Of a DNA stretch of 43,920 bases, positions 11,400-35,760 are shown piece after piece. Both the position numbers and the translations under genes were made by a program. The DNA is from a virus. Position 1 is the first letter of the stretch, and each line of letters starts with the position of its first letter. Location: the IMG/VR virus record IMGVR_UViG_3300031669_000066, positions 1 through 43,920 of that record; one strand, given 5' to 3'. The notes under the pieces are model-generated. The model was not told the origin of the DNA. It worked only from the letters and a program-made list of their open reading frames with translations, and ran no database searches.

Positions 11400-12302
11400 A
11401 TGCCTATTGATCCAGTAGAACAAGTCCGACAATTGAGCCTTGACCTTGGGGTGCAGGATGACCCGGCTCCAGCAGATGCAGGAGAAGATGAAGGTACCGC
11501 AGCCGCCCCCCAGAGCAATGGTCGGAACTATGAATCCGAAGCCATCTCCAAAGGCTGGGTTCCAGAGTCGGAATTCAAAGACGACCCTTCCAAGTGGGTG
11601 GATGCAGAAACCTTTGTAAAGCGCGGTGAACGCTTCAACAAGAACCTGCAGCGTGAGGTAGCAGAACTCAAAGCTACCATCGAGTCCTTCAAGGGTACGC
11701 AGGCGAAGGCTGTGAAGTTCTACGAAGAGGCCATTGCGCGGAAGACGGCAGAAAATGCTGAAACCATGAAGCAACTCCGAATCGCCCGCAGTGAGGCTCA
11801 GCGGAACGGGGAAGATGAGACTGTTGTTGATATTGAAGATCGCATCGAGGCCCTGAAGAAGCAGCAGGCGGAAGTAGAGGCAGTCGAGGCCCCGCAAGGA
11901 CTTGATCCCAAAGCAACAGATCCTACCACCAACCCCATCCTGCAAGAGTGGATCGAAGACGGTAACGACTGGTTCAATGACTACCCTGAAGTTCGGGAGA
12001 TTGCATTAGCCCTCGGTGAGAAGATGGTTGCAGCAGGAGAGAAGGCTCGCGGCCGCCCCTTCCTTGATAAGATCACCGAAGCAATGAAGGTACAATTCCC
12101 ACGGAAACTGGGTAAGGCTAAGGTTGCCAATCCGCAGCGAATTGAGGGAAGCAGCTCGAATGCCTCAACTTCCTCAGTCTCCGTGAATGGCAAGACCGCT
12201 CGCGATCTTCCTGAAGAAGACCAGAAGCTGATGAAGCAATTCATCCGTGAAGGCTGGGTGAAAGATGAAAAGACCTACCTCGAAAGCTACTTCTCCCGGT
12301 AA
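11400..12302 (+). CDS. Scaffolding protein (300 aa)
   Basis: Acidic, Glu/Lys/Ala-rich coiled-coil composition; position between portal and capsid genes. Confidence 0.65.
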   Translation: MPIDPVEQVRQLSLDLGVQDDPAPADAGEDEGTAAAPQSNGRNYESEAISKGWVPESEFKDDPSKWVDAETFVKRGERFNKNLQREVAELKATIESFKGTQAKAVKFYEEAIARKTAENAETMKQLRIARSEAQRNGEDETVVDIEDRIEALKKQQAEVEAVEAPQGLDPKATDPTTNPILQEWIEDGNDWFNDYPEVREIALALGEKMVAAGEKARGRPFLDKITEAMKVQFPRKLGKAKVANPQRIEGSSSNASTSSVSVNGKTARDLPEEDQKLMKQFIREGWVKDEKTYLESYFSR

Positions 12303-14413: not shown

Positions 14414-14465
14414 GGGGAAATTAGCCTGTATTACTCCCGAGTAATGCGGGCAAATAACCCCTTTT
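14414..14465 (+). terminator. Possible attenuator/terminator: copy 5 extended by GGGG/CCCC and followed by TTTT
   Basis: gggg(14414..14417) pairs with cccc(14458..14461), then tttt(14462..14465); downstream of the capsid gene. Confidence 0.4.
14418..14457. repeat. Palindrome family copy 5 (core TTACTCCCGAGTAA 14431..14444)
   Basis: aaattagcctgtattactcc|cgagtaatgcgggcaaataa; 15 nt after the capsid stop codon. Confidence 0.95.
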
Positions 14466-15772: not shown

Positions 15773-16477
15773 ATGGCTACAAGTGGAACTACTATCTTCA
15801 CGATGACCCGTGATGAGATTGCGGCAGCAGCATTGCGTAGCTTGGGAGCTTTTGGCCCTCAGGATACAATTCCTGCTACTGACCTCACCACAGCAGCGGA
15901 GGCTCTCAACATCCTTGTCAAGGCCATGTCGATAACAGAGCTTCCTTTGTGGTGCGTCGATGACATAGCAGTTCCTCTGGTTGTCGGTATCGGCACTTAT
16001 GACTTGAGTGCAGCTACCGGCACCACTTTACCACTTCGTGTTCTGGATGCGTACATTCGGAATGCTGCCGGGATGGATCGCACTTTGCAGATCATTTCCC
16101 GCTACGACTATGATACGCTGGGGTATAAGAACGCTCCAGGTGCTCCAACACAGCTCTACTATGACCCGCAACTCGGCTCTGGGAAGGTCACGGTTTATGC
16201 GGTTCCTGCCTATGCCGGGGAAACTCTCCACGTAGTCCTCCAGCGGCAGATTCAGGACTTCAACCTCTCCACGGACAACCCCGACTTCCCTCAGGAGGCT
16301 TTGCGGATGCTTAAGTGGGGGCTGATGGATGAACTCGCCCTTGAGTACCGTACACCACGGAATGAGAGACTGGAAATTAACCAGCGTGCTTTAAGCTACC
16401 GGCAGCAGTTCGAGGCTTCGCTGCAAGAACAAGCCTCGGTAGTCTTTGTCCCTACAACACGGCAGACAGCACGATGA
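15773..16477 (+). CDS. Head-to-tail adaptor, P22 gp4-like
   Basis: N-terminus TRDEIAAAALRSLGAFGPQDTIPATDLTTAAEALNILVKAM parallels P22 gp4 [39 protein letters not shown]. Confidence 0.6.
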   Translation: MATSGTTIFTMTRDEIAAAALRSLGAFGPQDTIPATDLTTAAEALNILVKAMSITELPLWCVDDIAVPLVVGIGTYDLSAATGTTLPLRVLDAYIRNAAGMDRTLQIISRYDYDTLGYKNAPGAPTQLYYDPQLGSGKVTVYAVPAYAGETLHVVLQRQIQDFNLSTDNPDFPQEALRMLKWGLMDELALEYRTPRNERLEINQRALSYRQQFEASLQEQASVVFVPTTRQTAR

Positions 16478-17397
16478 ATCAAGTTATCTCTCATTTTCGC
16501 GTGGCTACTGACTTGGATGTACTTCCGTTGCAACGAGCGTTGCTTCGCCAACCATGGCTCTTTGGGCAGGATGGGGAACGGAAAGGAGCCTATGGGAGTG
16601 CTCACTCATGCATGACAGACATCTGGCTCCGGTACAATCCTAAAGAGAAGTATCTCCGGCGCAATAACTTTGCAGGTTTCAACGATGAGCATGATTCGCA
16701 GTGGTATCCTGCATACTACCAGCTTCCGCAAGTCCGCAGCATTATCTTCAAGCTCATGGAGCTGGTGGAAGGTGAGCGACTCGGCGGAGTACTGATTACG
16801 AAGCTTGCTCCTGGGGAATCTATCGATACGCATCAGGACTTTGGCTGGCACGCCGCATACTATGATAAGTACTACATCCCGCTTCAGAATGCCGAAGGTG
16901 CCACCTTCAATTTCCCTGATGGTAAGATTGAGCCAAAGCTGGGTGAGGCATACTGGTTCGAGAACAGTATCCCGCACGGCGTGACCAATAACTCCAGCGA
17001 AGACCGTATTGCCCTGATCGTGTGCATCCGCAGCGACAGCACCAAAGGAGCTTATCGTCCTCAACCAGCTCCAACCTTGAGTACAACTCCTATACATCAT
17101 TTTTCTGCTGGGGTAAATGCGCTGGAACTCAAGCTCCCTGCTGGCCACCGAGCTTGCTCACATAAGCACAACTACGATCACATGAGCATCCTTGCACAGG
17201 GTGAGGTCGTCGTAACAGTAGATGGTTGCACCTCACGCTTCATTGCCCCGACTGTAGTAACTATCACTGCAGGCAAAGTCCACGAAATCATAGCTATTGA
17301 AGATTCCGTCTGGTTCTGCATACATCCTGCAGAATCTCTTGACAGCCCAAAACCAGAGCTGGATGATGTTATCATCGCAGCCATCGAGCAGGAGTAA
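16474..17397 (+). CDS. Asp/Asn beta-hydroxylase-type 2OG/Fe(II) oxygenase fused to a C-terminal cupin domain
   Basis: HxD...H triad THQDFGWH ... IPHGVTN. C-terminal HKHNYDHMSILAQGEVVV...GKVHEIIA cupin-like. ATGA overlap with the adaptor gene. Confidence 0.6.
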   Translation: MNQVISHFRVATDLDVLPLQRALLRQPWLFGQDGERKGAYGSAHSCMTDIWLRYNPKEKYLRRNNFAGFNDEHDSQWYPAYYQLPQVRSIIFKLMELVEGERLGGVLITKLAPGESIDTHQDFGWHAAYYDKYYIPLQNAEGATFNFPDGKIEPKLGEAYWFENSIPHGVTNNSSEDRIALIVCIRSDSTKGAYRPQPAPTLSTTPIHHFSAGVNALELKLPAGHRACSHKHNYDHMSILAQGEVVVTVDGCTSRFIAPTVVTITAGKVHEIIAIEDSVWFCIHPAESLDSPKPELDDVIIAAIEQE

Positions 17398-17402: not shown

Positions 17403-17996
17403 ATGCCTTGGGGAGTAGTAGCAGCAGTAGCAGGTGCAGCAGTCAGCAGCGCTCTGGCACCAACACCTTCAGCACCAACACAAAGCGCATCCGGTGCGGC
17501 AGATCCCTTTGCCCCGCAGCGTCAGCAGTACCAACAGCAACTGCAAAGCATGATGAGCGGGAACTATAAAATGAGTTCTGATCCAAGTTACCAATATCAA
17601 CTAGATCAAGGAAGTACGAATCTTTCCCGGCAAATGGCAGCGCAGCATATGCAAGGAAGTGGAGCGGAGCTTGCTGCACTGCAAACCTATGGCCAGCAGA
17701 CAGCAGCGGCTGATTTCAGTAACCAGTATGATCGACTTGCGCAGCTCTCAGGTGCCAATATAGGCAGTCCAGCTGCAGCAGGGCAGATTATTGCGGGGCA
17801 GCAAAATCAGCAGCTTCAAGCCTCCTCTGCCTTCGGCAATGCCGTTGGTGGGGCAGTAAGTAACCTTGGCCAGAGCGCCTATAGCTACTTCAGTGCTCCA
17901 ACGGCTGACACTTCCGGCGGCTACGCTCCATCCTACGGCAGTTCCGCTGGGGGTTACGATACCTCCTTTGGCGGGGCTTCTGGAAGCTTCTTCTAA
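17403..17996 (+). CDS. Gly/Ala/Ser/Gln-rich internal virion (ejection) protein
   Basis: Low-complexity composition typical of podovirus internal proteins; position. Confidence 0.5.
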   Translation: MPWGVVAAVAGAAVSSALAPTPSAPTQSASGAADPFAPQRQQYQQQLQSMMSGNYKMSSDPSYQYQLDQGSTNLSRQMAAQHMQGSGAELAALQTYGQQTAAADFSNQYDRLAQLSGANIGSPAAAGQIIAGQQNQQLQASSAFGNAVGGAVSNLGQSAYSYFSAPTADTSGGYAPSYGSSAGGYDTSFGGASGSFF

Positions 17997-18010
17997 GAGG
18001 GGGAATTATT

Positions 18011-19339
18011 ATGTCACTTGGTGGATTCCTTCAAGGTGTTGGCCTGCAAATGGGCTACAATGATATTTATGGCACAAAGCTGAACCTGGAACATGCTGAC
18101 CTTAAACTGAAGCAGCAGCAAGTTCAGATGAATTCTCTTGCCATGCAACAGCAAAAGCAGATCATGACTGGCCGTGAGGCACTGATGAAAGAGGAGCAGA
18201 CGCAAGCTGCCTTGAATAAGGGCAAGGTTGTATCCCCGATGCAGGCTGCTTCACAGTATGATCAGCTTGCACAGCTTGCACTCGGCCATGGTGATTTCCA
18301 GAGTGCAACGGCCTTTCAGAATGAAAGCAAGACACTGCGAGAGACTGCAAAAGACACCGCACTGATGGTAGCGAAGCAGAAACAGTCCACCGAGGAAGAT
18401 GCCGCAAAGGCTGCGATTGCTCTGAAGCAAAATCCTACGGAAGCCGGGTACCATGCTTGGGTTGCTAATATGGCCAAAGCCGGGCAGGATGTGTCGAAGT
18501 ATCCTGCAACCCTCCAGCAATTTGCACAAAACCCTGGAGCTATGGCAGCTCTTGGTGCGGCATCCACACTCGGAGAAAGTAGCAAAGACATCCTCGCCTC
18601 CAAGGAGAAGCAGCGGGAGTTCCAACTGAAGCAGCAACAGGTGCAAGAAGAACAGGCACAGCGTCGACAAGACCGATTGACGCAGCAGCAGCTTGTTGCT
18701 AGTATGCACGAACAGACCCATAATGAGCAGGTACAGGCGAGGCTGGATCGGGAGCAAGCAGCGCAGCAAGCCCACCTGGATCGACAGGAAAAGATGAAGC
18801 AGGCAGAATCTGGAAAGCACTTCGACGAACGGCAGAAGTTGGTAACAACAGCGGAGACTGCCAATAGCGATACCCTGAAACAGTACAAGACTGTAACGGG
18901 CGCAATGGGGGCTGCAATGCAAGGCTCTGCGGTAGGGGATCAGCAGCTCCGTCAGGCATTACCAAGCTTGAACTCCTTCCTCAAGGGTCGAGCTACGAAT
19001 GTCTACTACAAGGACAATGCGAACTTTGGGAATCTTGCAGCTAGGGCTGAGAATGCGATCTCCCGCTTCACTCAAGGGAAGTTCTCTGAAGCTGATCGTG
19101 GGCAGATCGTGACTGCATTGCACTATTTCCAGGCTCAGAACACGAAGGAACTCAATGATGCTGAAATCCAGCTCAAAGAGAATGCCAAAGCTCAAGGCCT
19201 TGACCCGAATAAAGTGCAACTTCCAGGGACATTCCCGAGAGTTCCTGAAGGTGCGACGGCTACGGGGCTGACTCCAGATGGCAATTTGGCATATGAACAG
19301 GATGGTAAGTGGTACCTCCTTAATACAGGGGCTAAATAA
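18011..19339 (+). CDS. Gln-rich coiled-coil internal virion protein (442 aa)
   Basis: Composition and position; ATGA-type overlap with the next gene. Confidence 0.5.
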   Translation: MSLGGFLQGVGLQMGYNDIYGTKLNLEHADLKLKQQQVQMNSLAMQQQKQIMTGREALMKEEQTQAALNKGKVVSPMQAASQYDQLAQLALGHGDFQSATAFQNESKTLRETAKDTALMVAKQKQSTEEDAAKAAIALKQNPTEAGYHAWVANMAKAGQDVSKYPATLQQFAQNPGAMAALGAASTLGESSKDILASKEKQREFQLKQQQVQEEQAQRRQDRLTQQQLVASMHEQTHNEQVQARLDREQAAQQAHLDRQEKMKQAESGKHFDERQKLVTTAETANSDTLKQYKTVTGAMGAAMQGSAVGDQQLRQALPSLNSFLKGRATNVYYKDNANFGNLAARAENAISRFTQGKFSEADRGQIVTALHYFQAQNTKELNDAEIQLKENAKAQGLDPNKVQLPGTFPRVPEGATATGLTPDGNLAYEQDGKWYLLNTGAK

Positions 19340-22300
19340 TGCCAACGCAGATTACTGATCCGAAGTTACTGTCTCAACTGCAAGCGCAGCAAGGAGCAGA
19401 GGAAGGAGCTTCTACTGCAACTTCGACTCCGGCCCCTCCAACTGCACCTGCCTCTCCTACGCAGGCTAATCCGATGCCTCCAGCTTCAATGGTAGCAGAT
19501 CCAACCGCAGTGCAGTATCTGAATGCCCAGAAAGGCGCGGTCCCAGGTTCTCCGGCGCAAGCCCCAATGGCTAAGGAACAATCTGTAATCCCCGCGATGA
19601 AGAACTCCTTCGCCCTTGGTGAGGCTAACATGCTTGGGATGCCGGTAGATGCAGTCGGCAACGTGCTGAAATACTTCCATATCGTCCCTCAGGATACTAA
19701 GTTCTTCGGAGGTAGCGAACAGTTCAAAGAAGCCTTCCATGCCAGGGATAATTTCGCAGTACCTCTGGACTCTACCGGGCATGTTAGCACTGCGAACCAG
19801 TACCTTACCACCATTGCGGAGTTCCTTGGAGGTGCGGCGGTCTTTGGAGCGGGGGAGATTGCGGCAGCTCCGAAGGCACTTGCGGAAGCTTCGAAGCTCG
19901 CACCTGCGGCAGTTGATGCAATGGGAACGGGGCTTCGGAGTGTAGAGAAGGCGCTGGAAGGGAAGGCAGAGAAGATTGCTCCCACGATAACAGAGAAGGC
20001 AGCCACTACCCTGTCTGATAAGGTACTTGGAAAGGCGGCAACTGTTGCTAATAATATCAAGAACCTTCGCCAAACCGACTTTACTAACCGGCTCTACAAG
20101 GCTGCAGTCATTGGAGCTGGTGCAACCGCCTCTGGTATGGGTTCTGTGGAAATGGGACAACTCGGCAAAGAACATGCCAAGGACTTCGGCTACACTCCAG
20201 AGCAGGGTGAGGCGGTAGGAAAATTCCTCGGAAGCTTCTTCGGGCCGGTAGCACTGACTGAAGCTGGTCACTATCTCAACAAGGGGATGCAAGCAGGGGT
20301 GGAATCCGCAGGAAATATGGCCACAAAGCTCGGAGTCGGTCGGACTGCGCAGCGCTCATTGGTCAATGGACATGTGCTCAAGGAGACGCAGAAGCTCTTC
20401 AATGAAGACCCGACTTCACTGCAGAACATGGCGATGGCTACCGAGGTCATGCAGAAGGTCGATGGATTCAAGCCGAACTTGCCTCAGATCACTGGTTCTG
20501 CGGGGTTGAAAGCACAGTTCCGAGGTCTTGCGGATAAAAGCCCCGATGCACACTCCCTGGCAACGCAGGTCGATCAGGCGAATCAGGCTGCTCTGGCGAA
20601 ATTCAAGGAAGGTGCATTCGGGCCGAGCACTGCGGCGACTCCGAGTACCGCAGCCAAGGGCAAGGCGAGTAATATCTTTGATCCTGCGAAACTCACCCAG
20701 AGCAATGCACGGCAGATCAATGACCTGCATATGAAGGAGCTGGAGCAGGAACGGACAGCGCTGGATGATGCCTTCCGCACGAGTCCGAATCCAGAAGAGG
20801 CTGGTGCAGCATTGCGGGAGCTTTACTGGAACAAGCGCCAAGGTGCAAAAGCGATACTGGATGAGCAGCTTACTGGAAAGGGCGGTGTGTACCAGACCGC
20901 AAAGCAGCTCGGTGTGACCGCAGACATGGGGGATGTACGGGACTTGGTGAAGAAGATTGCCGCAGATGATCCGAATACCTTCCAGAATATGCCTCCGGTG
21001 TTCTCGAAAGTGCTGAAGGAGTACCCGGAAACGACAGCAGCGACGACGGTGAGGACTGCAGTGACTCCGCAAGGCGCCGCAAAGCCCCTTTACAAGAGTA
21101 CAGTGGTGCCGGGAGAGGCTGGGAAGGATACTGCGAGCTTCGAGGAGCTGCATTCGCTGGCAAAGCAGGTCGGTCGGGAGAGGCTTGATGCGGTGACTGC
21201 ACAGGATATGACCAAAGCGCACTACCTTGGGCAGGTGAAAGACTTGCTGGAGGGCAAGGTGAAGGGGTTTGAAGGGCCGGAATATGGGAAGGTTGGAGAG
21301 CAGCTCTCGAAGTATAATAAAGACTACGCGCAGTATGCACATACCTTCAGAGAAGGGCTTGGTGGACAGCTCGCGAAGCGGACGAAGAACGGCATCAGTA
21401 CTGACGACAGCGAGATTGTCGACAAGCTCATTCTGCAATCAGGGAACAAGTCCAAGGGTGTGCGGGACTTTGTAGAGCTGTACGGTGACGGCCCAGAGGC
21501 GAAGGAGTTGCTGCACAATGGACTGCTGGATTCTTATAGCAGATACGTTATGAAAGATGGTGTTTTTGATGCCAAGGCCGCGCAGCGGTGGGTTGACGGG
21601 CATAGCAAGGCATTGGAGCAGCTCCCAGAAACTAAAGGATACTTCCAGAATGCGGCAAAGGTAGCAAAGGATCTCAACTTTCGCCAGAAGCAACTGCAAG
21701 CAGAGAGGAAGTTGATTGACAAGGGGGTGCTGGCGAAGATCGCAAATGGTACAAACCCGGAGAAGGTTATTAACAGCGCCCTGCAAGATCCGGAAGTGAT
21801 GCGGGTGTTGGTGCAGAGTGCAAAGTTGCATAAGGCAGAATCTCCACTGGCAAGGGCCTTTGCGGATCATGTTGGAGAGCAGGCAGATCCGATGGGGTAC
21901 CTGCTGGAACACCAGAATGCACTGAAGCCGGTGATGGAGACACTGAAGCCAGGACATTGGGATAATCTGATGGTGATTGCGAAAGGGCAAGCGGTGGCGA
22001 GAAGGGCTACGGCGCCGAAGGAGCTGGAGATTGCGCAAGAGAAAGACCCACTGCACAAGAGAATTGGTACTAGCGTGCCTGGGATGATTAGTATTGTGCG
22101 GAATCCGATGGGGGTTAGCAAGTGGGTGAATGCAGGGGCTATTGGTAGCAGACTGCTGTACACTATGCGGAATGAAGATATTGACCGGATGCGTAAGGCC
22201 GCACTGTTTGACCCGGATATGGCAGGGGTGTTGGCGGAGCATCTACGGAAGAACAACTTCGTAGGGTACGGAGGGATGGTGCTGCAAGGGCAAGAGGCGG

Positions 22301-22443
22301 AAGATTTGATGCGGCTGGTTTATATCCATGGGATCAACGGGCCAGTGCAGGCTCTGCACGCACCACTGAAGCCGCAAGAGTTGGCGGATTGGTTGAAGAT
22401 GAGGGAGCGACAACAGCAAGGAGAGGGGGCAGGAGGGAGGTAG
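19339..22443 (+). CDS. Large internal virion / DNA-ejection protein (1034 aa)
   Basis: Largest ORF, helical Ala/Lys/Gly-rich; no RNAP or transglycosylase motif recognised. Confidence 0.5.
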   Translation: MPTQITDPKLLSQLQAQQGAEEGASTATSTPAPPTAPASPTQANPMPPASMVADPTAVQYLNAQKGAVPGSPAQAPMAKEQSVIPAMKNSFALGEANMLGMPVDAVGNVLKYFHIVPQDTKFFGGSEQFKEAFHARDNFAVPLDSTGHVSTANQYLTTIAEFLGGAAVFGAGEIAAAPKALAEASKLAPAAVDAMGTGLRSVEKALEGKAEKIAPTITEKAATTLSDKVLGKAATVANNIKNLRQTDFTNRLYKAAVIGAGATASGMGSVEMGQLGKEHAKDFGYTPEQGEAVGKFLGSFFGPVALTEAGHYLNKGMQAGVESAGNMATKLGVGRTAQRSLVNGHVLKETQKLFNEDPTSLQNMAMATEVMQKVDGFKPNLPQITGSAGLKAQFRGLADKSPDAHSLATQVDQANQAALAKFKEGAFGPSTAATPSTAAKGKASNIFDPAKLTQSNARQINDLHMKELEQERTALDDAFRTSPNPEEAGAALRELYWNKRQGAKAILDEQLTGKGGVYQTAKQLGVTADMGDVRDLVKKIAADDPNTFQNMPPVFSKVLKEYPETTAATTVRTAVTPQGAAKPLYKSTVVPGEAGKDTASFEELHSLAKQVGRERLDAVTAQDMTKAHYLGQVKDLLEGKVKGFEGPEYGKVGEQLSKYNKDYAQYAHTFREGLGGQLAKRTKNGISTDDSEIVDKLILQSGNKSKGVRDFVELYGDGPEAKELLHNGLLDSYSRYVMKDGVFDAKAAQRWVDGHSKALEQLPETKGYFQNAAKVAKDLNFRQKQLQAERKLIDKGVLAKIANGTNPEKVINSALQDPEVMRVLVQSAKLHKAESPLARAFADHVGEQADPMGYLLEHQNALKPVMETLKPGHWDNLMVIAKGQAVARRATAPKELEIAQEKDPLHKRIGTSVPGMISIVRNPMGVSKWVNAGAIGSRLLYTMRNEDIDRMRKAALFDPDMAGVLAEHLRKNNFVGYGGMVLQGQEAEDLMRLVYIHGINGPVQALHAPLKPQELADWLKMRERQQQGEGAGGR

Positions 22444-22447
22444 GGGG

Positions 22448-22487
22448 TTATTGGCCTGTATTACTCCGGAGTAATGCGCGCAAGAAA
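22448..22487. repeat. Palindrome family copy 6 (core TTACTCCGGAGTAA 22461..22474)
   Basis: Starts 5 nt after the stop of the 1034-aa gene. Confidence 0.95.
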
Positions 22488-22547
22488 CTACCTGTGCCAG
22501 ACTGAACCGACCATTCCTACCCCTACCAGCCGCCGAAAACAAGGGGG

Positions 22548-22577
22548 TTGACAACACACCCCGCAGCATGATACTCT
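22548..22577 (+). promoter_or_regulatory. Candidate sigma70-type promoter TTGACA-N18-(TGa)TACTCT for the ATP-grasp cassette
   Basis: gggggTTGACAacacaccccgcagcaTGaTACTCTc, between palindrome copies 6 and 7. Confidence 0.45.
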
Positions 22578-22627
22578 CTTATGGGCGGTTGGGAGGGATA
22601 ATACCTGCGGAGCCTGACGGTTTGGGG

Positions 22628-22667
22628 TTATTGGCCTGGGTTACTCTGGAGTAATACACGCGAGTTT
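22628..22667. repeat. Palindrome family copy 7 (core TTACTCTGGAGTAA 22641..22654)
   Basis: In the predicted 5' leader of the ATP-grasp gene. Confidence 0.95.
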
Positions 22668-22719
22668 GCGCCTCCTTCCAGCCCCTTACTACTACTTACT
22701 ACAGCCTTGGAGCACCAGA

Positions 22720-24042
22720 TTGAACATCCTTATCATTGACAGCATGGCAGCTTCAGTAGACTTCGCCCTCAGAGCCGAAGCCCAAGGCCATGAAGTACGG
22801 GTTTTTGTGCCGCCACTGCGCAGCGGGGATAAGAACCCCGTCGGTCGGGGGCTGGTAGAGCTTGTCCTGCAATGGGAACGGCACCTTCCTTGGGCAGATT
22901 TAGTCTTCCTCACGGACAATGCGCGCTTTATTAAGGAACTCGAACCTTTTCGGAAGCGGGGTGTGCCTATCTTCGGCCCGAACTTGGTCGGAACCTCATG
23001 GGAACTTGAGCGGGGGGTTGGCCAGAATATCCTGGAGGCGCATGGAATCCCCTGCCTTCCCAGTACGGTCTTCACCAGCTACGACGACGCCATGGCTTTC
23101 CTTCTTAAGAACCCGAAGCGATACGTTTCCAAGCCCACCGGCGATGCTGACAAGGCTCTCAGCTACGTCTCTAAGAGTCCTGCGGATATGCTTTTCATGC
23201 TGGAAAGGTGGAAGAAGGCCGGCAAGGCTAAAGTCTCTTTCCTCTTCCAGGAGTTCGTACCGGGGATTGAGGTTGCAGTTGGGGGCTGGATGGGCCGCAA
23301 CGGCTTCCTCTCCTACTTCCTTGAGAACTTTGAATTCAAGACGCTCATGAACGGTGAGGTCGGAGTCAATACTGGAGAGATGGGCACTGTCCTTAAGTAT
23401 TGCACCATTGAGCAAAGTAAGCTTGCACAGGAGCTGTTGCTGCCTCTGGAGGCAGAGCTTATCCGCATTGGCTACACTGGCTACATTGACGTTGCTGTTA
23501 TTATTGCCGAAGATGGCACCCCTTGGCCCCTCGAATTTACCACTCGCCCTGGCTGGCCACTGTTCCAGATCCAGCAGGTACTCCACCCTGATGTAGCTGG
23601 CTGGATGCAGGACGCTCTACGAGGCCGGGATACCTTCCAGCCTGGCACAGATATTGCCATCGGAGTTGTGATCACACTACCGGACTTCCCTTACAGCAAG
23701 CTCACGAAGAAGGAAACCACAGGATTTCCTGTCTGGGGGATTACGGAGAAGAATCGCTACTTCGTACATCCGAGCGAAATGATGCAGGGCGAGGCAATGG
23801 AAGAGACTTCCCCTGGCCGCTTCCGGAAGACTCCGATGATGGTGAGCGCTGGTGACTACCTGATGACGGTTACGGCGACTGCAAGTACAGTAAGCGACGC
23901 GCAGGAGCAAGTCTATAAGCGCCTTAAGGACTTCACAATCCCAAATTCCCCTATGTACCGCACTGATATTGGCGGCCGCTTGCAGAAGCAACTCCCTGTA
24001 TTGCAGGCTAAGGGATATTGTGAGAGCTGGAAGTGGAAATAG
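22720..24042 (+). CDS. PurD-like (phosphoribosylamine-glycine ligase family) ATP-grasp enzyme
   Basis: By-eye alignment with E. coli PurD along the full length: GPNLVGTSWELERGVGQNILEAHGIP / GPTAGAAQLEGSKAFTKDFLARHKIP; GVNTGEMGTV / GPNTGGMGAY; PLEFTTRPGWP / VIEFNCRFGDPE; RTDIG / RKDIG. Start placed at TTG 22720 (GGAG 7 nt upstream); the track ORF starts at 22666. Confidence 0.75.
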   Translation: MNILIIDSMAASVDFALRAEAQGHEVRVFVPPLRSGDKNPVGRGLVELVLQWERHLPWADLVFLTDNARFIKELEPFRKRGVPIFGPNLVGTSWELERGVGQNILEAHGIPCLPSTVFTSYDDAMAFLLKNPKRYVSKPTGDADKALSYVSKSPADMLFMLERWKKAGKAKVSFLFQEFVPGIEVAVGGWMGRNGFLSYFLENFEFKTLMNGEVGVNTGEMGTVLKYCTIEQSKLAQELLLPLEAELIRIGYTGYIDVAVIIAEDGTPWPLEFTTRPGWPLFQIQQVLHPDVAGWMQDALRGRDTFQPGTDIAIGVVITLPDFPYSKLTKKETTGFPVWGITEKNRYFVHPSEMMQGEAMEETSPGRFRKTPMMVSAGDYLMTVTATASTVSDAQEQVYKRLKDFTIPNSPMYRTDIGGRLQKQLPVLQAKGYCESWKWK

Positions 24043-24122
24043 TGACGGGCTGCAATGGATGCGGCTGGACAAATCCGCTCGGGGCTGGTAGCTTTGGGGG
24101 TAACAAGGGGGAATAGTAGGAG

Positions 24123-24162
24123 TTACTAGCCTGCATTACTCTAGAGTAATACACGCAAACAA
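24123..24162. repeat. Palindrome family copy 8 (core TTACTCTAGAGTAA 24136..24149)
   Basis: Between the ATP-grasp gene and the tail-fibre module. Confidence 0.95.
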
Positions 24163-24194
24163 CCCTCGCCTCATTCTTAATGGAGGCTTTCCTT

Positions 24195-24503
24195 ATGGGT
24201 ATGGCTGATTTTTACAAATCCGGCGATTGGAACTTCTACTGCCACCTCTGTGGCGCGAAGCAAAAGTCTTCTATGGCCATGAAGACCTGGGATGGGTTTT
24301 ACGTCTGCCGTCATCACAAGGCAAAGCGGAATCCTCAGGATAAGCTGCGAGGGGTACGTGAGATCCAGGGACTTCCATGGAGTACAAGTAAAACTCCTGA
24401 TCCCACTATCGGAGGTGGGGCTTATGTTTGCAGCCTCCAAGGGTCAACTGCAATTCCTGACTTGGCGATTCCTGGATGCATGATCCCAGGACGAGTTTTA
24501 TAA
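24195..24503 (+). CDS. Small Cys/His protein of the tail module (CHLC...CRHH)
   Basis: ATG 24195 has GGAGG 8 nt upstream (the track start 24180 is inside the SD); DWNFYCHLCGAKQKSS...WDGFYVCRHH resembles a zinc-ribbon. Confidence 0.55.
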   Translation: MGMADFYKSGDWNFYCHLCGAKQKSSMAMKTWDGFYVCRHHKAKRNPQDKLRGVREIQGLPWSTSKTPDPTIGGGAYVCSLQGSTAIPDLAIPGCMIPGRVL

Positions 24504-28264: not shown

Positions 28265-29749
28265 ATGAAATACTCTCTGACGCCGGATATTGAGACTAGG
28301 GATGGCAGCCTGGCCAAAGACGCTTTGACTGTAAATGTCATCGGAGGTCAGGTACGTCCGGGGATTATACTTCAGACTCTGCCAGCGGGAGCTACTGTTC
28401 CGCCAGTCGGTTATGGGAGAGGGCTGGTTTACAACCAGCAATTGGCCTTTGCCTATGTAGTTGGTGCTGTGATGTATTTTTATACTTCAGCAAGAGCAGC
28501 TGTCTCCTTCCCAATCGACGGTACACAGAATCCTGTTAGCCTTCTTTCTGTCCTGAGTCCTATATGGGCATCTCCAGAGGCTTATGTACTCTTGACTTCG
28601 CCAGGAACAACCGGATTTTATTACTATACATACTCGACTGGGGTTGTGACAGCAGTTTCGGCGCTTTCAGGGATTTACTTCGTCTCGGGAATTGTGGCTC
28701 TGGATGATACATATTATGTACTGACTAGGGATGGCGCGATTCTCGGGAGTGCCTTGGGGGATTTCACAACTTGGAATGCACTGAACAGTTTGATGGTAGA
28801 TCTTTCTGTTGGGGATGATTTTCCTGTTGCTCTTAGACGGCATTTGAATTATATTGTAGCCTTTACACGGAATACGCTGCAATTCTTTTATGACAATGGC
28901 AATCCAGCCCCCGGTTCCCCTCTTTCAGCCGCAGCAACCCTGCTCACTCCTATTGGGTGCCTAACTCCAGATAGTATAATCTTAGCTGCTGGTGGGTATT
29001 TCTTCCTTGGAAGTGCCTTGGAAGGGTCTCCAGCTGTCTACTACTTAACCGGGAATCAAGTAGTTAAGGTTTCTACTCCGGCTGTTGAAAGAGTTCTGAT
29101 TCAGGTTCAGTCCACGCACCCCTTTACCACGGTTAATTATATTCCAAAAGCTGGGGCAGTGTATTCGTCTTTGGCCGTCTTCAACGGGAAACCTGTATAT
29201 ATTCTGACCTTTCCTTATGCGAATATTACACTGTATTATAATTTTGAAGATAAGCTTTGGGGAACTTTAACATCTTCGGTATCTGTCGGCACTGATGCAA
29301 ATGGCGTTCCTATCTTTACTGAGGGCTATTTGAAATTGGCCTTTGCAGTGGCGCCCCCCAATGACTTTGGCCCCATGTACCAAGATATGACAACGGGGAG
29401 GTTAGTTAAATTTGATACACTTAATAATTCTCAAGTAGACCTTGGAGAGCCTATCGTTGCTAGAGTACAGACGCAGCCAGTCTTCGATGACAACACCAAT
29501 AGTCTGCGCAGAATAGCCGCAACCGAGATCATCGGGGATAAAATTGCCGGTACTGCTTATCTGAGCTACTCCGATGACGATTATGCAACTTGGTCAACTT
29601 GGCAACCTGTCTCACTTAGTGCTCGGCGCAGTCGCGTACTCCGACAAGGTGCTACGCATCGTCGGAGTTATAGACTGCAATACTCGGAGGCTCTCCCAAT
29701 GCGGTTTAAAGAATTACAACTGGATGTTCCAGTAAGGCCAGTGGAATAG
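28265..29749 (+). CDS. Tail hub / packaged-DNA stabilisation protein, P22 gp10-like
   Basis: By-eye similarity to P22 gp10 in the central region (YIVAFTRNTLQFFYDNGNP / FIVCFGSSTIEYFSLTGAT; SPAVYYLTGNQ / APSVYIIGSGQ) and at the C-terminus. Confidence 0.55.
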   Translation: MKYSLTPDIETRDGSLAKDALTVNVIGGQVRPGIILQTLPAGATVPPVGYGRGLVYNQQLAFAYVVGAVMYFYTSARAAVSFPIDGTQNPVSLLSVLSPIWASPEAYVLLTSPGTTGFYYYTYSTGVVTAVSALSGIYFVSGIVALDDTYYVLTRDGAILGSALGDFTTWNALNSLMVDLSVGDDFPVALRRHLNYIVAFTRNTLQFFYDNGNPAPGSPLSAAATLLTPIGCLTPDSIILAAGGYFFLGSALEGSPAVYYLTGNQVVKVSTPAVERVLIQVQSTHPFTTVNYIPKAGAVYSSLAVFNGKPVYILTFPYANITLYYNFEDKLWGTLTSSVSVGTDANGVPIFTEGYLKLAFAVAPPNDFGPMYQDMTTGRLVKFDTLNNSQVDLGEPIVARVQTQPVFDDNTNSLRRIAATEIIGDKIAGTAYLSYSDDDYATWSTWQPVSLSARRSRVLRQGATHRRSYRLQYSEALPMRFKELQLDVPVRPVE

Positions 29750-30658: not shown

Positions 30659-30710
30659 CCGGGGTTATTTGCTGGTATTACTCTAGAGTAATGAGGGCAA
30701 ATAACCCCGG
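30659..30710. repeat. Palindrome family copy 9 (core TTACTCTAGAGTAA 30678..30691), at the convergence of the two arms
   Basis: ccggggttatttgc...gcaaataaccccgg, outer 14 bp perfectly complementary; followed by tttatttt. Confidence 0.95.
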
Positions 30711-30824: not shown

Positions 30825-31316
30825 TCACTCCAATTTGACCGATAGGGCGAAATTAAACACCACGCCATGCTTTGCAGATCCGCCCCACGTTCGCCCGTTA
30901 AACAACGGTATAGCGCGAACCAATAGCATGGAATTAGGACTGAAGGCATACGAGGCAACCACCCCAGCAAGAGGGGTAATTGCCCCCCCAGCTAGGTAGC
31001 GCTGGTATCCAGTAACAATCCCTACTCCGAGACCTGCTTGGAATTTCCCGAAGGAAACCGGCATGAAGTCGTACTCTGCAAATACAGATGGATGACTGTA
31101 GCTATTGCGATAGGCTCCGAGGCTCAGATAATTCTTCTGGCGTAGTCGAACTCGAACTCCGAGGCCTTCGTTGGAGTTGTTGTAAATTCGACCTTGATTA
31201 TCGGCTCTCAGCGTATGGTAACTAGGCCCCATTAAGAGCAGAGAGTAGTCTGCTGCACGAGTCTGCGCCGGCAAGAGTAAGGTTGCTGCAAAGGCTGCTG
31301 TTGCTAACTTTTTCAT
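30825..31316 (-). CDS. Signal-peptide protein, predicted small outer-membrane beta-barrel (163 aa)
   Basis: MKKLATAAFAATLLLPAQTRA|AD signal peptide; alternating hydrophobic beta-strand pattern with Gly/Tyr-rich turns; ATGA overlap with the DNA polymerase stop. Confidence 0.6.
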   Translation of the reverse strand: MKKLATAAFAATLLLPAQTRAADYSLLLMGPSYHTLRADNQGRIYNNSNEGLGVRVRLRQKNYLSLGAYRNSYSHPSVFAEYDFMPVSFGKFQAGLGVGIVTGYQRYLAGGAITPLAGVVASYAFSPNSMLLVRAIPLFNGRTWGGSAKHGVVFNFALSVKLE

Positions 31317-33691
31317 TCACATTCTCCCCAACTTTTTGTACTGCTGACAACACCGACAGGAATGATAAGAGGTTCCGGGTAAGGGATTGGAACCTGCGAT
31401 TCTTCTACGATCCTCCGCAAAGCCCAATCTCCGTGTACAGAGTTGAACTGGCCTACGAGGGAATCATGTACCTGAATGAGCACTTCGACCTCTGGCAGGT
31501 TCGCATTGATATTACTCCATGCACGGTTGATTAAGCAGGCTACTGTGCTCTGGGGTATCCATGCTACTGCTTGGTTGAAGACCGTCCCTTCGATCTTGTC
31601 CATGATATTGATCCGGTAGCCAAAGGCATTTTGGACGTAGCGGCGACCAGTAACCTGCTTCTTGATATCCTCTTGCCACTTCTCGATTTCTGGGGCAAGC
31701 CCGAAGTACCATTTCTGGATACGGGCAGTTTCGTGCACGTTCAGGCCGATGCGTGGGGCGATGCCTTCTGCTGTTCCAAGGTAGTTCGTGCCGTGGCAAA
31801 GGGACTTGAACATTGCATACTCTCTGGGATGGCTGCTCTTGGTCATGCTCTGGTCATGGTAATACTCTCGCATAACTTCCACATACGGTTTGCGGCCATT
31901 GCGGAAGTGATCCTTCATCCATTCGCAGTCACTCTCCCAAGTTACAATTCTGAGGTCGGCACTGTCGAGGTCGATGTCAAACATTGTTTGACCTGGGTCT
32001 GGGATGAAGAGCTTTCGTACATTGGGCAGGTTAAGGGCTTCGTCTTCAGTGTCTCCACCTTTAGGTATGTTCTGCATATTGAGACCAGTGCCGAATGCAT
32101 TCTTGCTTGAGCTGAATCGGTAGGTTTCCGTACCGCAGGTATTGAAGTTTGTCCGTATTCTTCCGTCGGTATCGAGTGCAGCTTGAACGAAGGTACTGTG
32201 AAATACTCCGATGCTTCGGAGTTCAGAGATTTTTCTGGTAAGGGGACGTAGTAAAGGCTCTCGGTCAGCAATTTTATGTAAGGCTTCATCATTAGTCGTG
32301 AGAGAAAGTCCCCCGTTTGCATTGCGTTGCCTAATCTCCTTTTGCCCAAGTTCCACATAGAATAACTCCTGCATTTGCTTTGGTGATTTGATATTCACGC
32401 TTCTGCCAATAACTTCCAGCATCCAGGCTTCTCGTTCTGCTGCGGCAGCTTGTAGCTCTTGTGAGAACTCCCATCGCGCAGCCATATCCATACGCACGCC
32501 CCGGATCATTGCTTTGAGGGCAAGTTCGTTGGCGAGATGTTGCTGGAACTTGTATACCTCGGTCATATTGAGGGCTGGGATTACATTATCGAGTACGTCA
32601 GAGATTGCTAAGGTACGTAAGGAATCCGTGGCATTGTAAATCCAGAACTTCGTTTCCCCTTCCCCTTTCGGCCCTTCGTTCCAATTTGTGCGGTCATCCT
32701 TCCAGTGGAGATGGTCTTCAAGGTAGAGTGAACTGAGGAAAGAGAGATTCTTTTCCATATTGCTGAAACAGCTGTGATGCTTAACCATCGTATCTTCAAC
32801 ATTTGGGCAGAGAAAGTGCCAGAAGCGGTAGATATACTGTGCATCATAGTTCCAGTTCTGTCCAATGATGACTGAATTATGAAAAAGTCGATACATCTGA
32901 TAGACAAGATGTGCTTCTTCTTCCGCTGTCCAATAACCCTCAGGGTCGTGTTGGCACATCAATGGAATGGTTATTGCTTCAGTCTTTGACCAAGCGATGG
33001 CAATAGAAGCGATATGCCCTGCGCGGGTTTCAATATCTACTCCAAGTTTTGGCTTGTACTTTGCACCGATCAACCCTATTAGGGTATTATTAGCTGCCTC
33101 GAAACTTGGGTTTGGGTTTATTTGATAGGCAGTTCTTCGAATCTCTGGGAATTCACTTTGCCTTACAGCTCGTTTCAAGTCATGCACAATTAGAGTTCTG
33201 CGGCTCCATTGGGTGTTGAGGATTGCCGGATTGAGGGTAGGGATAATCTTTAGACCTGGGATAAGGGTACTTTCCATAATGGAGCTGCGCCATGCTTGCA
33301 CTCCCCATTCTCCGGTAAGAGCAAACAGTGCCAAATTCCCGATGGCAATTACGACATTCGGCTTGACTGCGAGAAGTTCTGCTTTGAGTCGTTCGGCACC
33401 AGTGATGACTTCTGGTCGTACCATCTGACCTTGCCAATAGACATGTTGTGGGGTTATATCTTTTTTCTTTAGTGCAATGAGACCATCGGCTCGGCCTCTG
33501 GGGGCACGATCATCATGTACCATTGTAAGGAAGCAAGCTTCACGAGAAGTTCCAGCTTCTTGAAGCATCTTGGAGAGTTCCATGCCCGGAGTGCCGCAGA
33601 ATGGTACACCTTTGTGGATATCCTGCTCATGCGGGAATTCTCCGACGATGGCGATCTTGGCATCAACGGGGCCGGTTGAGATAACTGGCAT
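31313..33691 (-). CDS. Family A DNA polymerase with N-terminal family-4 UDG-like domain and 3'-5' exonuclease domain
   Basis: UDG-like IAIVGEFPHEQDIHKGVPFCGTPG; exo I LGVDIETR. Pol motif A DIDLDSADLRIV, motif B KSLCHGTNYLG, motif C IQVHDSLV. Confidence 0.85.
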   Translation of the reverse strand: MPVISTGPVDAKIAIVGEFPHEQDIHKGVPFCGTPGMELSKMLQEAGTSREACFLTMVHDDRAPRGRADGLIALKKKDITPQHVYWQGQMVRPEVITGAERLKAELLAVKPNVVIAIGNLALFALTGEWGVQAWRSSIMESTLIPGLKIIPTLNPAILNTQWSRRTLIVHDLKRAVRQSEFPEIRRTAYQINPNPSFEAANNTLIGLIGAKYKPKLGVDIETRAGHIASIAIAWSKTEAITIPLMCQHDPEGYWTAEEEAHLVYQMYRLFHNSVIIGQNWNYDAQYIYRFWHFLCPNVEDTMVKHHSCFSNMEKNLSFLSSLYLEDHLHWKDDRTNWNEGPKGEGETKFWIYNATDSLRTLAISDVLDNVIPALNMTEVYKFQQHLANELALKAMIRGVRMDMAARWEFSQELQAAAAEREAWMLEVIGRSVNIKSPKQMQELFYVELGQKEIRQRNANGGLSLTTNDEALHKIADREPLLRPLTRKISELRSIGVFHSTFVQAALDTDGRIRTNFNTCGTETYRFSSSKNAFGTGLNMQNIPKGGDTEDEALNLPNVRKLFIPDPGQTMFDIDLDSADLRIVTWESDCEWMKDHFRNGRKPYVEVMREYYHDQSMTKSSHPREYAMFKSLCHGTNYLGTAEGIAPRIGLNVHETARIQKWYFGLAPEIEKWQEDIKKQVTGRRYVQNAFGYRINIMDKIEGTVFNQAVAWIPQSTVACLINRAWSNINANLPEVEVLIQVHDSLVGQFNSVHGDWALRRIVEESQVPIPYPEPLIIPVGVVSSTKSWGECE

Positions 33692-33692
33692 A

Positions 33693-35078
33693 TCAAGCTC
33701 CTTTCCCTAGCATGTTGAGGAGTTCGCTGCCGAGGTTTGCGCCTTGTTGCTGGATTGCGGCGGTTTCCACGTCAAGGTTCTGAGCACGCTTGAGGCAGAT
33801 ACCGTAGGATCCTGGATTCATTTCGATTGCGACTGCTTTGCATTGGAAGCGGTGTGCAGCGGGGAGGATGGTACCCGTGCCTGCGAAGGAGTCCAGTACC
33901 GTATCTCCTGGACGGACGCTTCTTTGGAGGAGATTCTCAAAGAGGGCAACTGGTTTCTGCGCGCCATGCTGAAGTCCGGAGTCCGCTGTTGTAGTAATAA
34001 CGTCAGAGTAAATGGCGGTGGTTTTCTTGTGCCCCTTGATTGCGTAGAGTAATACTTCATACTGCCTCCGGGGGCCTTCGTCGGGTAAGGGCACTCGGCC
34101 AGAGCCGGGCTTAGTGCAGATAAACGGAGTACGGAAAACGTACCAGCCAGCGGCCTTCATCATCTGACCGAGTTCATGGAAGTTCGCAATATCGCAGAAA
34201 ACGTAGGCATGAGCTTGGGACTTGGCAACCTTGAAGGCCAATGGGCACCATTGCAGCATAAGAGCTTTCCAGCTCTCGTAGTCATCTTTGTACTGGTGAG
34301 TGTTGTTAGCTAACCTGCCACCTCCACCATCCCCGAAGGAATCTGCCCCCATACCATACGGAGGGTCGGTAAGAATTACATCAAACTGCTCGGGATCAGC
34401 GGCATTCATCCAACTGAGGCAATCGGTGTTGTGGACTTGGTGGATGCTGGAGTTGAAGGTCTTGCCTACTGTCTTGGCCAGCTCTACATTCTTCTGGGCA
34501 ATTTCCTGCCGCTTGAGGATCTTGAACGCCTCGTCAGAGGTCTTTGCTTTTGCGATCTCTGGATTGTCAAGGTGCCGGGAGACGATGATATCCTTGCGGA
34601 GGTTTTCTTGGAAAGAGCCATTGCTGCGGCCTTTGAGTTCCATTGCGGTGTCTGCAACGGTATGGATGCGGCCTTCAGCTTGAGCCTGTGCGCTGCGAAT
34701 CCGGTGGAGTTTGGCTTTAGCTGCTGCGGACTCCTGCCATGTAAGGTCTTTGCGGTGCAGGTTTTCTTCCAGCTCCGCTTCTTCGGCATCCAATGGAGAG
34801 AGTTGCCCCAGGGTGACGTAAGGGATCATGCCTTCAGGTACAAGCTCGTCGTTGTACTTGAAAACACCCCCGAGCATCCAAAGATCAGTGATAGCCCGTA
34901 ACCGGCGTTCCCCCGCGACAAGGGTGAGGGTTTTGTCCTCTTCTTCTCGGACTACAATGGCATGAAGCAATCCCTTGGTTTTGATAGTCTCCACCAGCTC
35001 CATGATGGCGACAGGGTCAAATTCCTTGCGCTGGCGATCGGCGCCAATATTGATCTTATTTATATCAATGAGTTGCAT
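33693..35078 (-). CDS. ParB-like nuclease domain fused to an N6-adenine/N4-cytosine DNA methyltransferase
   Basis: N-terminal ParB-N-like LVAGERRLRA; MTase motif IV ILTDPPYGMG followed by motif I VLDSFAGTGT (beta-class order). Confidence 0.8.
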   Translation of the reverse strand: MQLIDINKINIGADRQRKEFDPVAIMELVETIKTKGLLHAIVVREEEDKTLTLVAGERRLRAITDLWMLGGVFKYNDELVPEGMIPYVTLGQLSPLDAEEAELEENLHRKDLTWQESAAAKAKLHRIRSAQAQAEGRIHTVADTAMELKGRSNGSFQENLRKDIIVSRHLDNPEIAKAKTSDEAFKILKRQEIAQKNVELAKTVGKTFNSSIHQVHNTDCLSWMNAADPEQFDVILTDPPYGMGADSFGDGGGGRLANNTHQYKDDYESWKALMLQWCPLAFKVAKSQAHAYVFCDIANFHELGQMMKAAGWYVFRTPFICTKPGSGRVPLPDEGPRRQYEVLLYAIKGHKKTTAIYSDVITTTADSGLQHGAQKPVALFENLLQRSVRPGDTVLDSFAGTGTILPAAHRFQCKAVAIEMNPGSYGICLKRAQNLDVETAAIQQQGANLGSELLNMLGKGA

Positions 35079-35169
35079 TCTGGTTTCCCATGTAAAGAAT
35101 GAAAATGAAAAAAGCCAGCTCGGTTAAGGAGCTGGCCTGTCTAGGAGGTGGGAAGCTCAGGCCAGTGGG

Positions 35170-35616: not shown

Positions 35617-35642
35617 ACGAAAGGTTCCTTACTGTAGTGGGT

Positions 35643-35667: not shown

Positions 35668-35715
35668 GAGTAGATTGTCACATGAGGGGTCAGTGTGCAA
35701 AGGGTTTTTTAACAG

Positions 35716-35755: not shown

Positions 35756-35760
35756 GGGCT

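Follow-up and report, generated by a model that had tools for sequence, protein, structure and literature searches.

A PurD-derived ATP-grasp ligase in the virion arm of a phage genome and its misannotated family

Why should a phage carry a gene resembling purD, which encodes the phosphoribosylamine--glycine ligase of purine synthesis, and no other gene of that pathway? The question is raised by IMG/VR virus record IMGVR_UViG_3300031669_000066, analyzed from position 1 to 43,920 (43,920 nucleotides, hereafter the window). On its + strand, at 22720..24042, lies an open reading frame (ORF) of 440 amino acids with a TTG start, the product of which is here called the ligase. A GGAG ribosome-binding site, 7 nt before the TTG, was read directly in the sequence (22709..22712, +). 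An earlier note, made from the letters alone, had taken the ligase for a PurD-like enzyme that may act on something other than phosphoribosylamine (PRA) and is encoded in a cassette that might be mobile or separately regulated. Our analysis identifies the ligase as a PurD-derived member of a large, systematically misannotated family. With a probability of roughly 0.7, it would still be competent to catalyse ATP-grasp carboxylate-amine ligation but would have ceased to produce glycinamide ribonucleotide (GAR).

Fold and active site of the ligase

Assignment of the ORF to the PurD fold drew on Pfam, a PDB sequence search, AlphaFold with Foldseek, and NCBIfam, and the chosen start was supported by the N-terminal sequence, MNILIID, which reads MKILLID in the consensus of homologues. 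The Pfam scan matched GARS_A at 6e-9 and GARS_C at 26.9 bits, below its cut-off, and gave no match to GARS_N at E up to 1. The best matches in the PDB sequence search were all PurD proteins (8e-14 upward, ~20-25% identity). An AlphaFold model computed with 59 homologues reached a mean predicted local distance difference test (pLDDT) score of 93.1 and a predicted template modelling (pTM) score of 0.90. Its top 15 Foldseek matches in the PDB were all PurD (E 6e-30 to 6e-25, template modelling (TM) score 0.68-0.76, ~450 aligned columns), with PurK and biotin carboxylases as the next neighbours (E ~1e-17, TM 0.52-0.63). As predicted, the ligase has the complete four-domain PurD fold. PurK and biotin carboxylase are likewise ATP-grasp enzymes with N, central and C domains that follow an acyl- or carboxy-phosphate route, but their matches were much weaker, and the GARS_C-type C domain of the ligase is specific to PurD. 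The resemblance to PurD previously noticed by eye is thus borne out by the GARS_A match, the PDB matches, and the model with its top 15 structural neighbours. No family for the ligase was found in PHROGs, and BFVD contained no close viral structure (best TM 0.41).

Compared with PurD (EC 6.3.4.13; TIGR00877; PDB 2YW2, 1GSO, 2QK4), the ligase shares the N/B/A/C ATP-grasp fold with homologous A and C domains and keeps the Lys/Glu that bind adenosine triphosphate (ATP), the Mg-binding Glu, the catalytic Arg of R-x-G-x-P, and the C-terminal R-x-D-I-G. However, it scored only 74.8 bits with TIGR00877, the purD equivalog of NCBIfam, against a cut-off of 288 and was aligned only over residues 75-420, whereas Salmonella PurD, used as a control, scored 619 bits. 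For the motif comparison, 200 family members were aligned with Salmonella PurD, and the statements on active-site residues rest on alignment to PurD. The residues retained for ATP, Mg and acyl-phosphate (E. coli numbers in brackets) were E95 (E102), R98 (K105), K138 (K145), K145 (K153), E184 (E194), E205 (D214), K207 (K216), E272 (E286) and R276 (R290), together with G278, P280 and R414-x-D-I-G. Among them, K138, K145, E184, K207 and R276 were conserved in 87-100% of the family.

The picture differed at the residues binding glycine and PRA, which in PurD have been assigned from published structures and models (PMC2978367, PMC8880213). The GGREHA loop, with human Arg13 and Glu14, was replaced by SMAASVDFA, in a segment that varies within the family. 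The Asp of RFGDPE (D293; human D295) corresponded to W279, a Trp or Tyr in 95% of the 200 members, and the Glu of the same motif (E295; human E297) to L281, with Leu, Ala or Thr across the family. A C-domain Arg (R383; human R385) was replaced by Y380, a Tyr in 90% of the 200 members. At the Mg site, the Asn (N288) of the Glu-x-Asn pair had become T274, with Thr in 98% of the 200, and E272 of the pair was kept. The segment E272-F-T274-T-R276-P-G-W279-P-L281 (23533..23562, +), equivalent to E-F-N-x-R-F-G-D-P-E of PurD, thus keeps the Mg-binding Glu and the catalytic Arg. In the loop N217-T-G-E220-M-G222 (23368..23385, +), which reads NTGGMG in PurD and is an intein hot spot in relatives, the Gly-to-Glu change was found in 96% of the family. 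Three acids, D14, D66 and E220, were newly conserved. Besides NTGEMG, E-x-T for E-x-N and RPGWPL for RFGDPE, the ligase differs from PurD in having AGDYL for SGGRV, an additional C-terminal tail of 20 residues, and no purine pathway around it.

The motif differences pointed out beforehand, GEMGT for GGMGA and RPGWP for RFGDPE, were therefore confirmed, and the comparison of PRA- and glycine-binding residues that had been proposed as a check found them not conserved (W279, L281, Y380; GGREHA absent). The PROSITE motif for PurD, PS00184, is R-[LF]-G-D-P-E-x-[EQIM] (quoted in PMC3261824); the ligase reads R-P-G-W-P-L-F-Q and fails it because residues of the glycine and PRA sites have been replaced. 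Judged on these residues, the ligase is unlikely to be a GAR synthetase or to make GAR. The suggestion of a substrate other than that of PurD is well supported, as the substitutions are family-wide and fall at the glycine and PRA sites of PurD.

Brown et al. (2011, PMC3261824) described two 'extra' PurD-like proteins of haloarchaea, rrnAC0307 and Hlac_1553, in which GARS_N and residues for Mg binding are missing, the Asp conserved in R[LF]GDPEx[EQIM] is absent, and the N-terminal loop has diverged. The authors concluded that neither is a GAR synthetase and assigned no function (PMC3261824). Compared by this published description only, the phage ligase departs from PurD in the same ways, although the haloarchaeal proteins are cellular and not from phages.

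Family extent, inteins and cellular relatives

A word-indexed search with the ligase returned 2,212 relatives at E <= 1e-5, of which the best 120 were 57-73% identical, and many lay on contigs of 42-47 kb. An exhaustive search of representatives at 50% identity yielded 204 clusters below 1e-30. The derived substitutions were common to hundreds of phage homologues; source databases label many homologues phosphoribosylamine--glycine ligase, and no publication on this family in phages was found in literature searches. An insertion of ~330 aa was present in 23 of 220 full-length members (~10%). The insertions start with C-[YF]-S-x-D-T-E-[VI]-L-T, and some contain a LAGLIDADG domain. These inteins were located between GVN and TGEMG, after TGEMG, or between EFT and xR, that is, in the two most conserved active-site loops. 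Strong purifying selection on the family was shown. Since the family is large and strongly conserved and its inteins target active-site loops, it very likely has a real enzymatic function.

GTDB contigs, taken as one genome per species, gave only five matches, all on contigs of 41-45 kb inside metagenome-assembled genomes (MAGs). These contigs are probably mis-binned phage genomes, and for this reason no host or prophage was identified. A match in Pseudomonas phage Y11 (OQ572412.1, 65957-67216; locus L084) was rejected because it is a genuine Pseudomonas PurD with GGREHA and RFGDPE. That purD gene terminates an unverified record and looks like host DNA at an assembly end rather than a phage gene. 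Two distant family members, P0222 and P0241 (L096, 1841-3442; L095, 277-1848), end in a ~100-aa domain that shows a DxDxT-type phosphatase signature of the haloacid dehalogenase (HAD) type. The HAD-like domain of P0241 matched phrog_1238 at 6e-11 and the polynucleotide kinase/phosphatase phrog_415 at 9e-6.

Two other distant representatives, P0205 and P0242, were found in cellular contexts. A search with P0242, from a Woesearchaeota MAG, returned more than 3,573 proteins of ~430 aa at E <= 1e-20, often named 'phosphoribosylglycinamide synthetase C domain-containing protein' by NCBI. They came from DPANN archaea, Patescibacteria, a 2.08-Mb Chitinophagales contig, Burkholderiales MAGs, soil bacteria and many environmental contigs, with Diapherotrites and Woesearchaeota among the chromosomal carriers. 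One genome with a sister-clade gene is GCA_026003335.1. Members of this sister clade (P0242, P0302, P0351 and more than 3,500 others) are full-length homologues with 29-33% identity to the ligase and are also intein hosts. The ligase aligned with the Chitinophagales member P0302 over residues 4-436 at 32% identity (184 bits), and with PurD over residues 71-420 at 24% identity (70 bits). Every derived feature was common to the sister clade: the absence of GGREHA, E205, TGEMG, E-x-T, R-F-G-Y-P-T (or, in short, R-F-G-Y-P), and the C-terminal tail, which ends there in WGYL or GY. The differences are that Trp279 is Tyr and Tyr380 is Val in the cellular proteins, and that their genes are chromosomal with no conserved partner gene.

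The neighbourhoods of the sister-clade genes were varied. They included a Glucosamine_iso+PIG-L deacetylase gene, a radical SAM gene in a Wzy_C/Wzt region, Cdc6 and PolD, Fic and SET genes, and a FemAB-like acetyltransferase. In 40 soil metagenome loci, a divergently transcribed gene for a protein resembling BamD-type lipoproteins with tetratricopeptide repeats was recognized by reading of the sequence, with no database match, and an apparent valyl-tRNA synthetase (ValRS) gene and a response-regulator-like gene were recognized nearby in the same way. No partner gene common to all the sister-clade neighbourhoods inspected was found.

Position, inheritance and regulation of the gene

The ligase was used to find 80 IMG/VR loci, in which its gene always lay 3' of ejection-like homologues. 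When two further loci, L001 and L002, were added, a gene for a Cys/His-rich protein followed the ligase in 45 of 82 loci, with fibre genes after it. Two more distant members kept this order: one with 29% identity, whose gene overlaps the stop codon of the preceding 653-aa gene, and one with 34% identity, from a phage that has a P22-type coat protein. Another distant member lay directly 3' of a Phage_stabilise gene. A ligase-independent sample consisted of adaptor-gene loci with at least 9 kb downstream (n = 25). The ligase was present in 23 of the 25, at 4.9-8.3 kb downstream of the adaptor, and its identity tracked adaptor identity (r = 0.71, n = 23). The guanine-plus-cytosine content of the gene was 54.3%, against 51.2% for the genome, and the cosine of its codon usage was 0.89, both within the range of neighbouring genes. 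The gene is near-core and vertically inherited, not a sporadic insert, because of its presence in 23 of 25 relatives, its fixed locus, its co-divergence with the adaptor, and its ordinary composition and codon usage.

The idea of a recently mobile, sporadic moron was therefore for the most part not supported: the 23/25 presence, the single locus kept down to 29% identity, the r of 0.71 and the ordinary composition all speak against it. The ligase gene does resemble phage morons or auxiliary metabolic genes (AMGs) in being an enzyme gene of cellular ancestry in the late arm, with a promoter-like site, flanking repeats capable of forming hairpins, and a few relatives that lack it. It differs from them in its occurrence in 23 of 25 relatives, at one locus, its co-divergence with virion genes, ordinary composition, and often no promoter of its own. 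The two relatives without the ligase, L235 and L242, lack precisely this gene; they came from one sample, IMG/VR 3300017700, and their records are IMGVR_UViG_3300017700_000726 and _000797. In L235 (17140-18100), the expected site consists of 940 nt without an ORF, after which a homologue of the small Cys/His gene follows. This empty site contains two copies of the palindrome of that phage ~370 nt apart, and is compatible with gene loss or gain by recombination at palindromes. Since these two relatives lack the gene, the ligase is dispensable for the virion module. Candidates for an obligate partner were rejected in two cases: the Cys/His-rich small protein persists in phages without the ligase, and an AspH-like gene occurs in only about one quarter to one third of relatives. 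A small precursor-peptide ORF of the graspetide style was not found adjoining the ligase, and in relatives the gene abuts its neighbour.

The window contains 12 copies of a palindrome of ~46 bp with the consensus GGGGTTATTTGCCTGTATTACTCnnGAGTAATACAGGCAAATAACCCC and a nearly invariant core, TTACTCnnGAGTAA(T). All 12 are intergenic, with core starts at 3092, 3629, 5736, 11349, 14431, 22461, 22641, 24136, 30678, 35729, 38595 and 41378. The strand matches numbered 24, against 0.42 expected, and none of 100 shuffles reached 24. Three copies lie around the ligase gene. Copy 6 (22444..22490, core ATTACTCCGGAGTAAT at 22460-22475) starts one base after the stop of the 1034-aa gene upstream (22443), copy 7 (22624..22670, core 22641-22655) lies in the leader ~50 nt upstream of the start codon, and copy 8 (24119..24165, core 24136-24150) is between the ligase stop and the next gene. 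RNA folding gave weak hairpins for all three (-17.6 kcal/mol, z -1.6; -15.2 kcal/mol, z -0.3; -11 kcal/mol, z -1.2), and copy 8, 3' of the ligase, has a hairpin without a U-run. By contrast, the copy behind the major head gene (14414-14461; -29 kcal/mol) and the one separating the convergent arms (30661-30708; -33.7 kcal/mol) form strong hairpins with U-runs (z ~-7); these two look like terminators. The core changes symmetrically between phages (TTACTC/GAGTAA to TTACAA/TTGTAA) and is nearly invariant within one genome. The palindrome may be a genome-wide punctuation, with its core bound by a dimeric phage regulator or serving as an RNA processing site, and we infer that some copies double as terminators. 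The three copies at the ligase thus belong to a genome-wide set of 12 and do not mark the ends of a cassette in particular, contrary to the earlier note.

Between copies 6 and 7 lies a sigma70-like promoter candidate, TTGACA-N16-GATACT or alternatively N18 with TGnTACTCT (22548..22577, +), with a 10/12 match. The local count of such sites was not above chance (3 against 2.7 expected), and no other intergenic site on the + strand of the whole window reaches 10/12. The ORF, its TTG start with GGAG, the three palindromes and the promoter-like site of the earlier description were all confirmed in the sequence. Similar arrangements were seen in some relatives. In L093, with a 73%-identical ligase, TTGACG-N17-TATAAT is located at -172 from the start, the same distance as in the window, and the palindrome in its leader aligns with copy 6 of the window; a palindrome downstream of the ligase gene was not found in L093. 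In L011, with a 65%-identical ligase, a palindrome family of its own, GTTATTGGGGCGGGTTACAAnnTTGTAATACACCCCAATAAC, occurs just behind the upstream gene, within the leader and 3' of the ligase, and TTGACG-N17-TACACT (9/12) lies between the two upstream copies. Four phages with 58%-identical ligases (L027, L028, L029, L032) have an identical 16-bp core, ATTACTCCCGAGTAAT, 39 nt before the ligase start. No Rfam family was found in the leader of the window ligase or of L011, and so no known riboswitch is present in these leaders.

The proposal of separate regulation stood in part. A promoter-like site between palindromes recurs in L011 with three palindromes, and in L093 as promoter-like site and leader palindrome only, whereas such a site is missing 5' of the ligase in most relatives, and in many the gene abuts or overlaps the upstream gene, leaving no room for one. 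Because most relatives lack the site, separate transcription would be a trait of the subclade of the window and not of the family; within this subclade, the sequence makes separate regulation plausible.

The genomic setting is that of a circular genome of ~43.84 kb, assembled with an overlap, since bases 1-79 of the window recur at 43842-43920. No cultured phage matched the window at the DNA level. The protein search found one uncultured relative, MW202796, in which the ligase gene is unannotated. Members of this phage group are abundant in samples of peat, acidic soil and freshwater. The virion arm (5854-30511, +) encodes terminase, portal, a GroES-like protein, the major head protein and an SU10-type adaptor (15773), followed by an AspH-like/cupin gene (16474). 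Further downstream on the same strand are ejection-like genes at 17403, 18011 and 19339-22443, then the ligase, fibre genes, holin, endolysin, and a P22-type stabilisation/nozzle-like gene. The replication arm (30825-43709, -) encodes a family A DNA polymerase, a ParB-methylase, a Sak4-like ATPase, a PD-(D/E)XK nuclease and a Dda-like helicase. Among the 46 ORFs scanned, no other pur gene was found, in agreement with the earlier note, nor any thymidylate-synthase-type gene, nucleotide-kinase gene or integrase.

The three genes immediately upstream (17403..22443, +; 197, 442 and 1034 aa) were taken as ejection or internal-virion-like genes from synteny and from a phrog_598 'DNA ejection' match of the first, and by synteny they also precede the ligase gene in relatives. 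A single-protein scan with the 1034-aa product as query returned no matches. Immediately downstream, the small Cys/His-rich gene (24180..24503, +) encodes 107 aa with no match in Pfam, PHROG or NCBIfam, and it is retained in the relatives without ligase. A second enzyme gene of the virion arm (16474-17397, +) encodes an Asp/Asn beta-hydroxylase domain of the LpxO/AspH family fused to a cupin domain, and this gene accompanies the ligase in about one quarter to one third of related loci. In relatives, the hydroxylase and cupin domains are separate genes, sometimes in reversed order. In MW202796, the same adaptor-to-ejection block contains a GNAT acetyltransferase gene, flanked by the gene for the stabilisation protein and by the first ejection-like gene.

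Several features lie farther from the ligase. The family A DNA polymerase (31313-33691, -) has an N-terminal domain of the uracil-DNA glycosylase (UDG) superfamily (PF03167, 2e-16), a fusion also present in L093 and L097. The nozzle/stabilisation-like gene (phrog_578, 28265-29749) is 3' of the lysis genes here and directly 3' of the adaptor in most relatives, so the tail module has been rearranged in the window genome. A GroES/Cpn10-like gene (10888-11292; PF00166, 1e-8), between the portal gene and a 300-aa ORF (11400-12302), is conserved in relatives. A stretch of ~1.5 kb between the divergent arms (4319-5853) contains no ORFs taken as genes, short tandem-like repeats at 5219-5261 and 5466-5496, and an 11/12 sigma70-like site (4938-4911, -); it could be a control or origin region. 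A small ORF (920-1444, -) with an AP2 DNA-binding domain and a weak HNH_3 match is suggestive of a homing-endonuclease-like gene.

Candidate reaction and role of the ligase

In the reaction that we favour for the PurD-derived carboxylate-amine ligase, a carboxylate would be activated by ATP as an acyl-phosphate on R276, K207 and Mg, and then be attacked by an amine. The acyl donor would have no free alpha-ammonium and would not be glycine, because the acids that hold the ammonium are now Trp/Tyr and Leu/Thr. The acceptor would lack the 5'-phosphate of PRA and would not be PRA, because both Arg candidates for phosphate binding are gone; the conserved acids D14, D66 and E220 would instead suggest a cationic, sugar-like or polyhydroxylated amine. 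The phage ligase probably performs the same ligation as its cellular relatives. Its gene would be a near-core accessory of an uncultured podovirus-like group, inherited with the virion arm and dispensable for virion formation, and in the window it is probably a transcription unit of its own, read by host RNA polymerase. Several points weigh against parts of this account. With Thr in place of Asn at a canonical Mg ligand, activity could be reduced or lost, the mapping of residues to functions relies on alignment to PurD and a predicted model, and no crystal structure has ever shown the PRA site of PurD itself (PMC8880213). The promoter candidate is no more than a match to the consensus, with no such site in most relatives and with many of the genes abutting the upstream gene. 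Furthermore, the strict position beside ejection genes favours a virion-linked role over a general metabolic one.

That position gives weight to a rather unlikely alternative, in which the ligase is packaged and ejected with the DNA, or covalently modifies an ejection or tail protein during assembly. The gene keeps its place after two or three large ejection-like genes and before fibre genes across 29-73% identity and different coat types, in several relatives it starts within the upstream gene or immediately at its end, and in one member, P0155, a Gly/Ala/Ser-rich upstream protein reads through into the ligase. The same block also holds other enzymes, namely AspH-like/cupin here and GNAT in MW202796. 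However, two otherwise intact relatives lack the gene, the large sister clade resides in cellular chromosomes without virion genes, PurD-type enzymes work on small molecules, and the window phage has a putative promoter of its own bracketed by palindromes, albeit weak hairpins. It is distinctly unlikely that the ligase instead amidates a sugar carboxylate, or acylates an amino sugar, of a host surface polymer or its precursor during infection. In the Campylobacter capsule, the amidoligase Cj1438 is followed by the HAD phosphatase Cj1435 (PMC11800397), and the HAD-phosphatase-like C-terminal domain of two distant members, one of them adjoining a Phage_stabilise gene, would parallel the logic of this pair. 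Some cellular members lie near Glucosamine_iso+PIG-L deacetylase, in a Wzy_C/Wzt-type region or after a FemAB-like acetyltransferase, and the phage virion arm has an LpxO/AspH-family hydroxylase domain. Yet each of these supporting contexts is a single observation, the most populated cellular context (BamD-like, ValRS, response regulator) is not a glycan locus, and the window phage shows no integrase or other sign of lysogeny, which leaves the benefit of surface conversion unclear.

Modification of a nucleotide or DNA base, by analogy with PurZ, the PurA paralogue for a non-canonical base, is quite improbable. It could draw on an ancestor that acts on a ribosylamine, on the aromatic Trp/Tyr gained in the pocket, which could stack on a base, on the ParB-methylase and the polymerase with its UDG-like N-terminal domain, and on the additional match of the P0241 HAD domain to a polynucleotide kinase/phosphatase PHROG. 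Against this, no hydroxymethylase, DNA kinase, deazapurine or PurZ-type genes were found in the genome, the ligase gene is in the virion arm and not in the replication arm, the phosphate-binding arginines are lost, and the cellular relatives occur in unrelated contexts. Very improbable, finally, is an ordinary AMG encoding a true, if divergent, PurD that raises purine synthesis in the host, even though no characterised family is closer than PurD in sequence or in structure and many homologues bear its name in databases. The ligase falls more than 200 bits below the purD equivalog cut-off, fails PS00184, and is without GARS_N and GGREHA; the glycine-binding Asp/Glu and both PRA-phosphate Arg candidates are replaced family-wide, and none of the 46 ORFs scanned is a further pur gene. 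DPANN and Patescibacteria lineages, in which relatives occur, as a rule lack de novo purine synthesis, which also counts against a PurD role. The verdict of Brown et al. on similar 'extra' PurD-like proteins was negative as well (PMC3261824).

The competent but non-GAR ligase therefore remains our preferred reading, and a wider proposal is less likely than not. It would make these proteins a large unrecognised PurD-derived amidoligase family of podovirus-like phages, DPANN, Patescibacteria and soil bacteria that performs an undescribed ligation, with a virion-linked or host-envelope target in phages, which would explain the fixed place beside the ejection-protein genes. Thousands of family entries are named phosphoribosylamine--glycine ligase despite the loss of the residues that define this activity, and the wrong call is therefore inherited by inventories of phage purine AMGs and by metabolic reconstructions of DPANN and Patescibacteria. 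Within the phage group, the ligase is the one enzyme kept at a fixed place between ejection and fibre genes, and this placement makes it a tractable entry point. Through it, an ATP-grasp reaction and a phage function that are both new could be defined.

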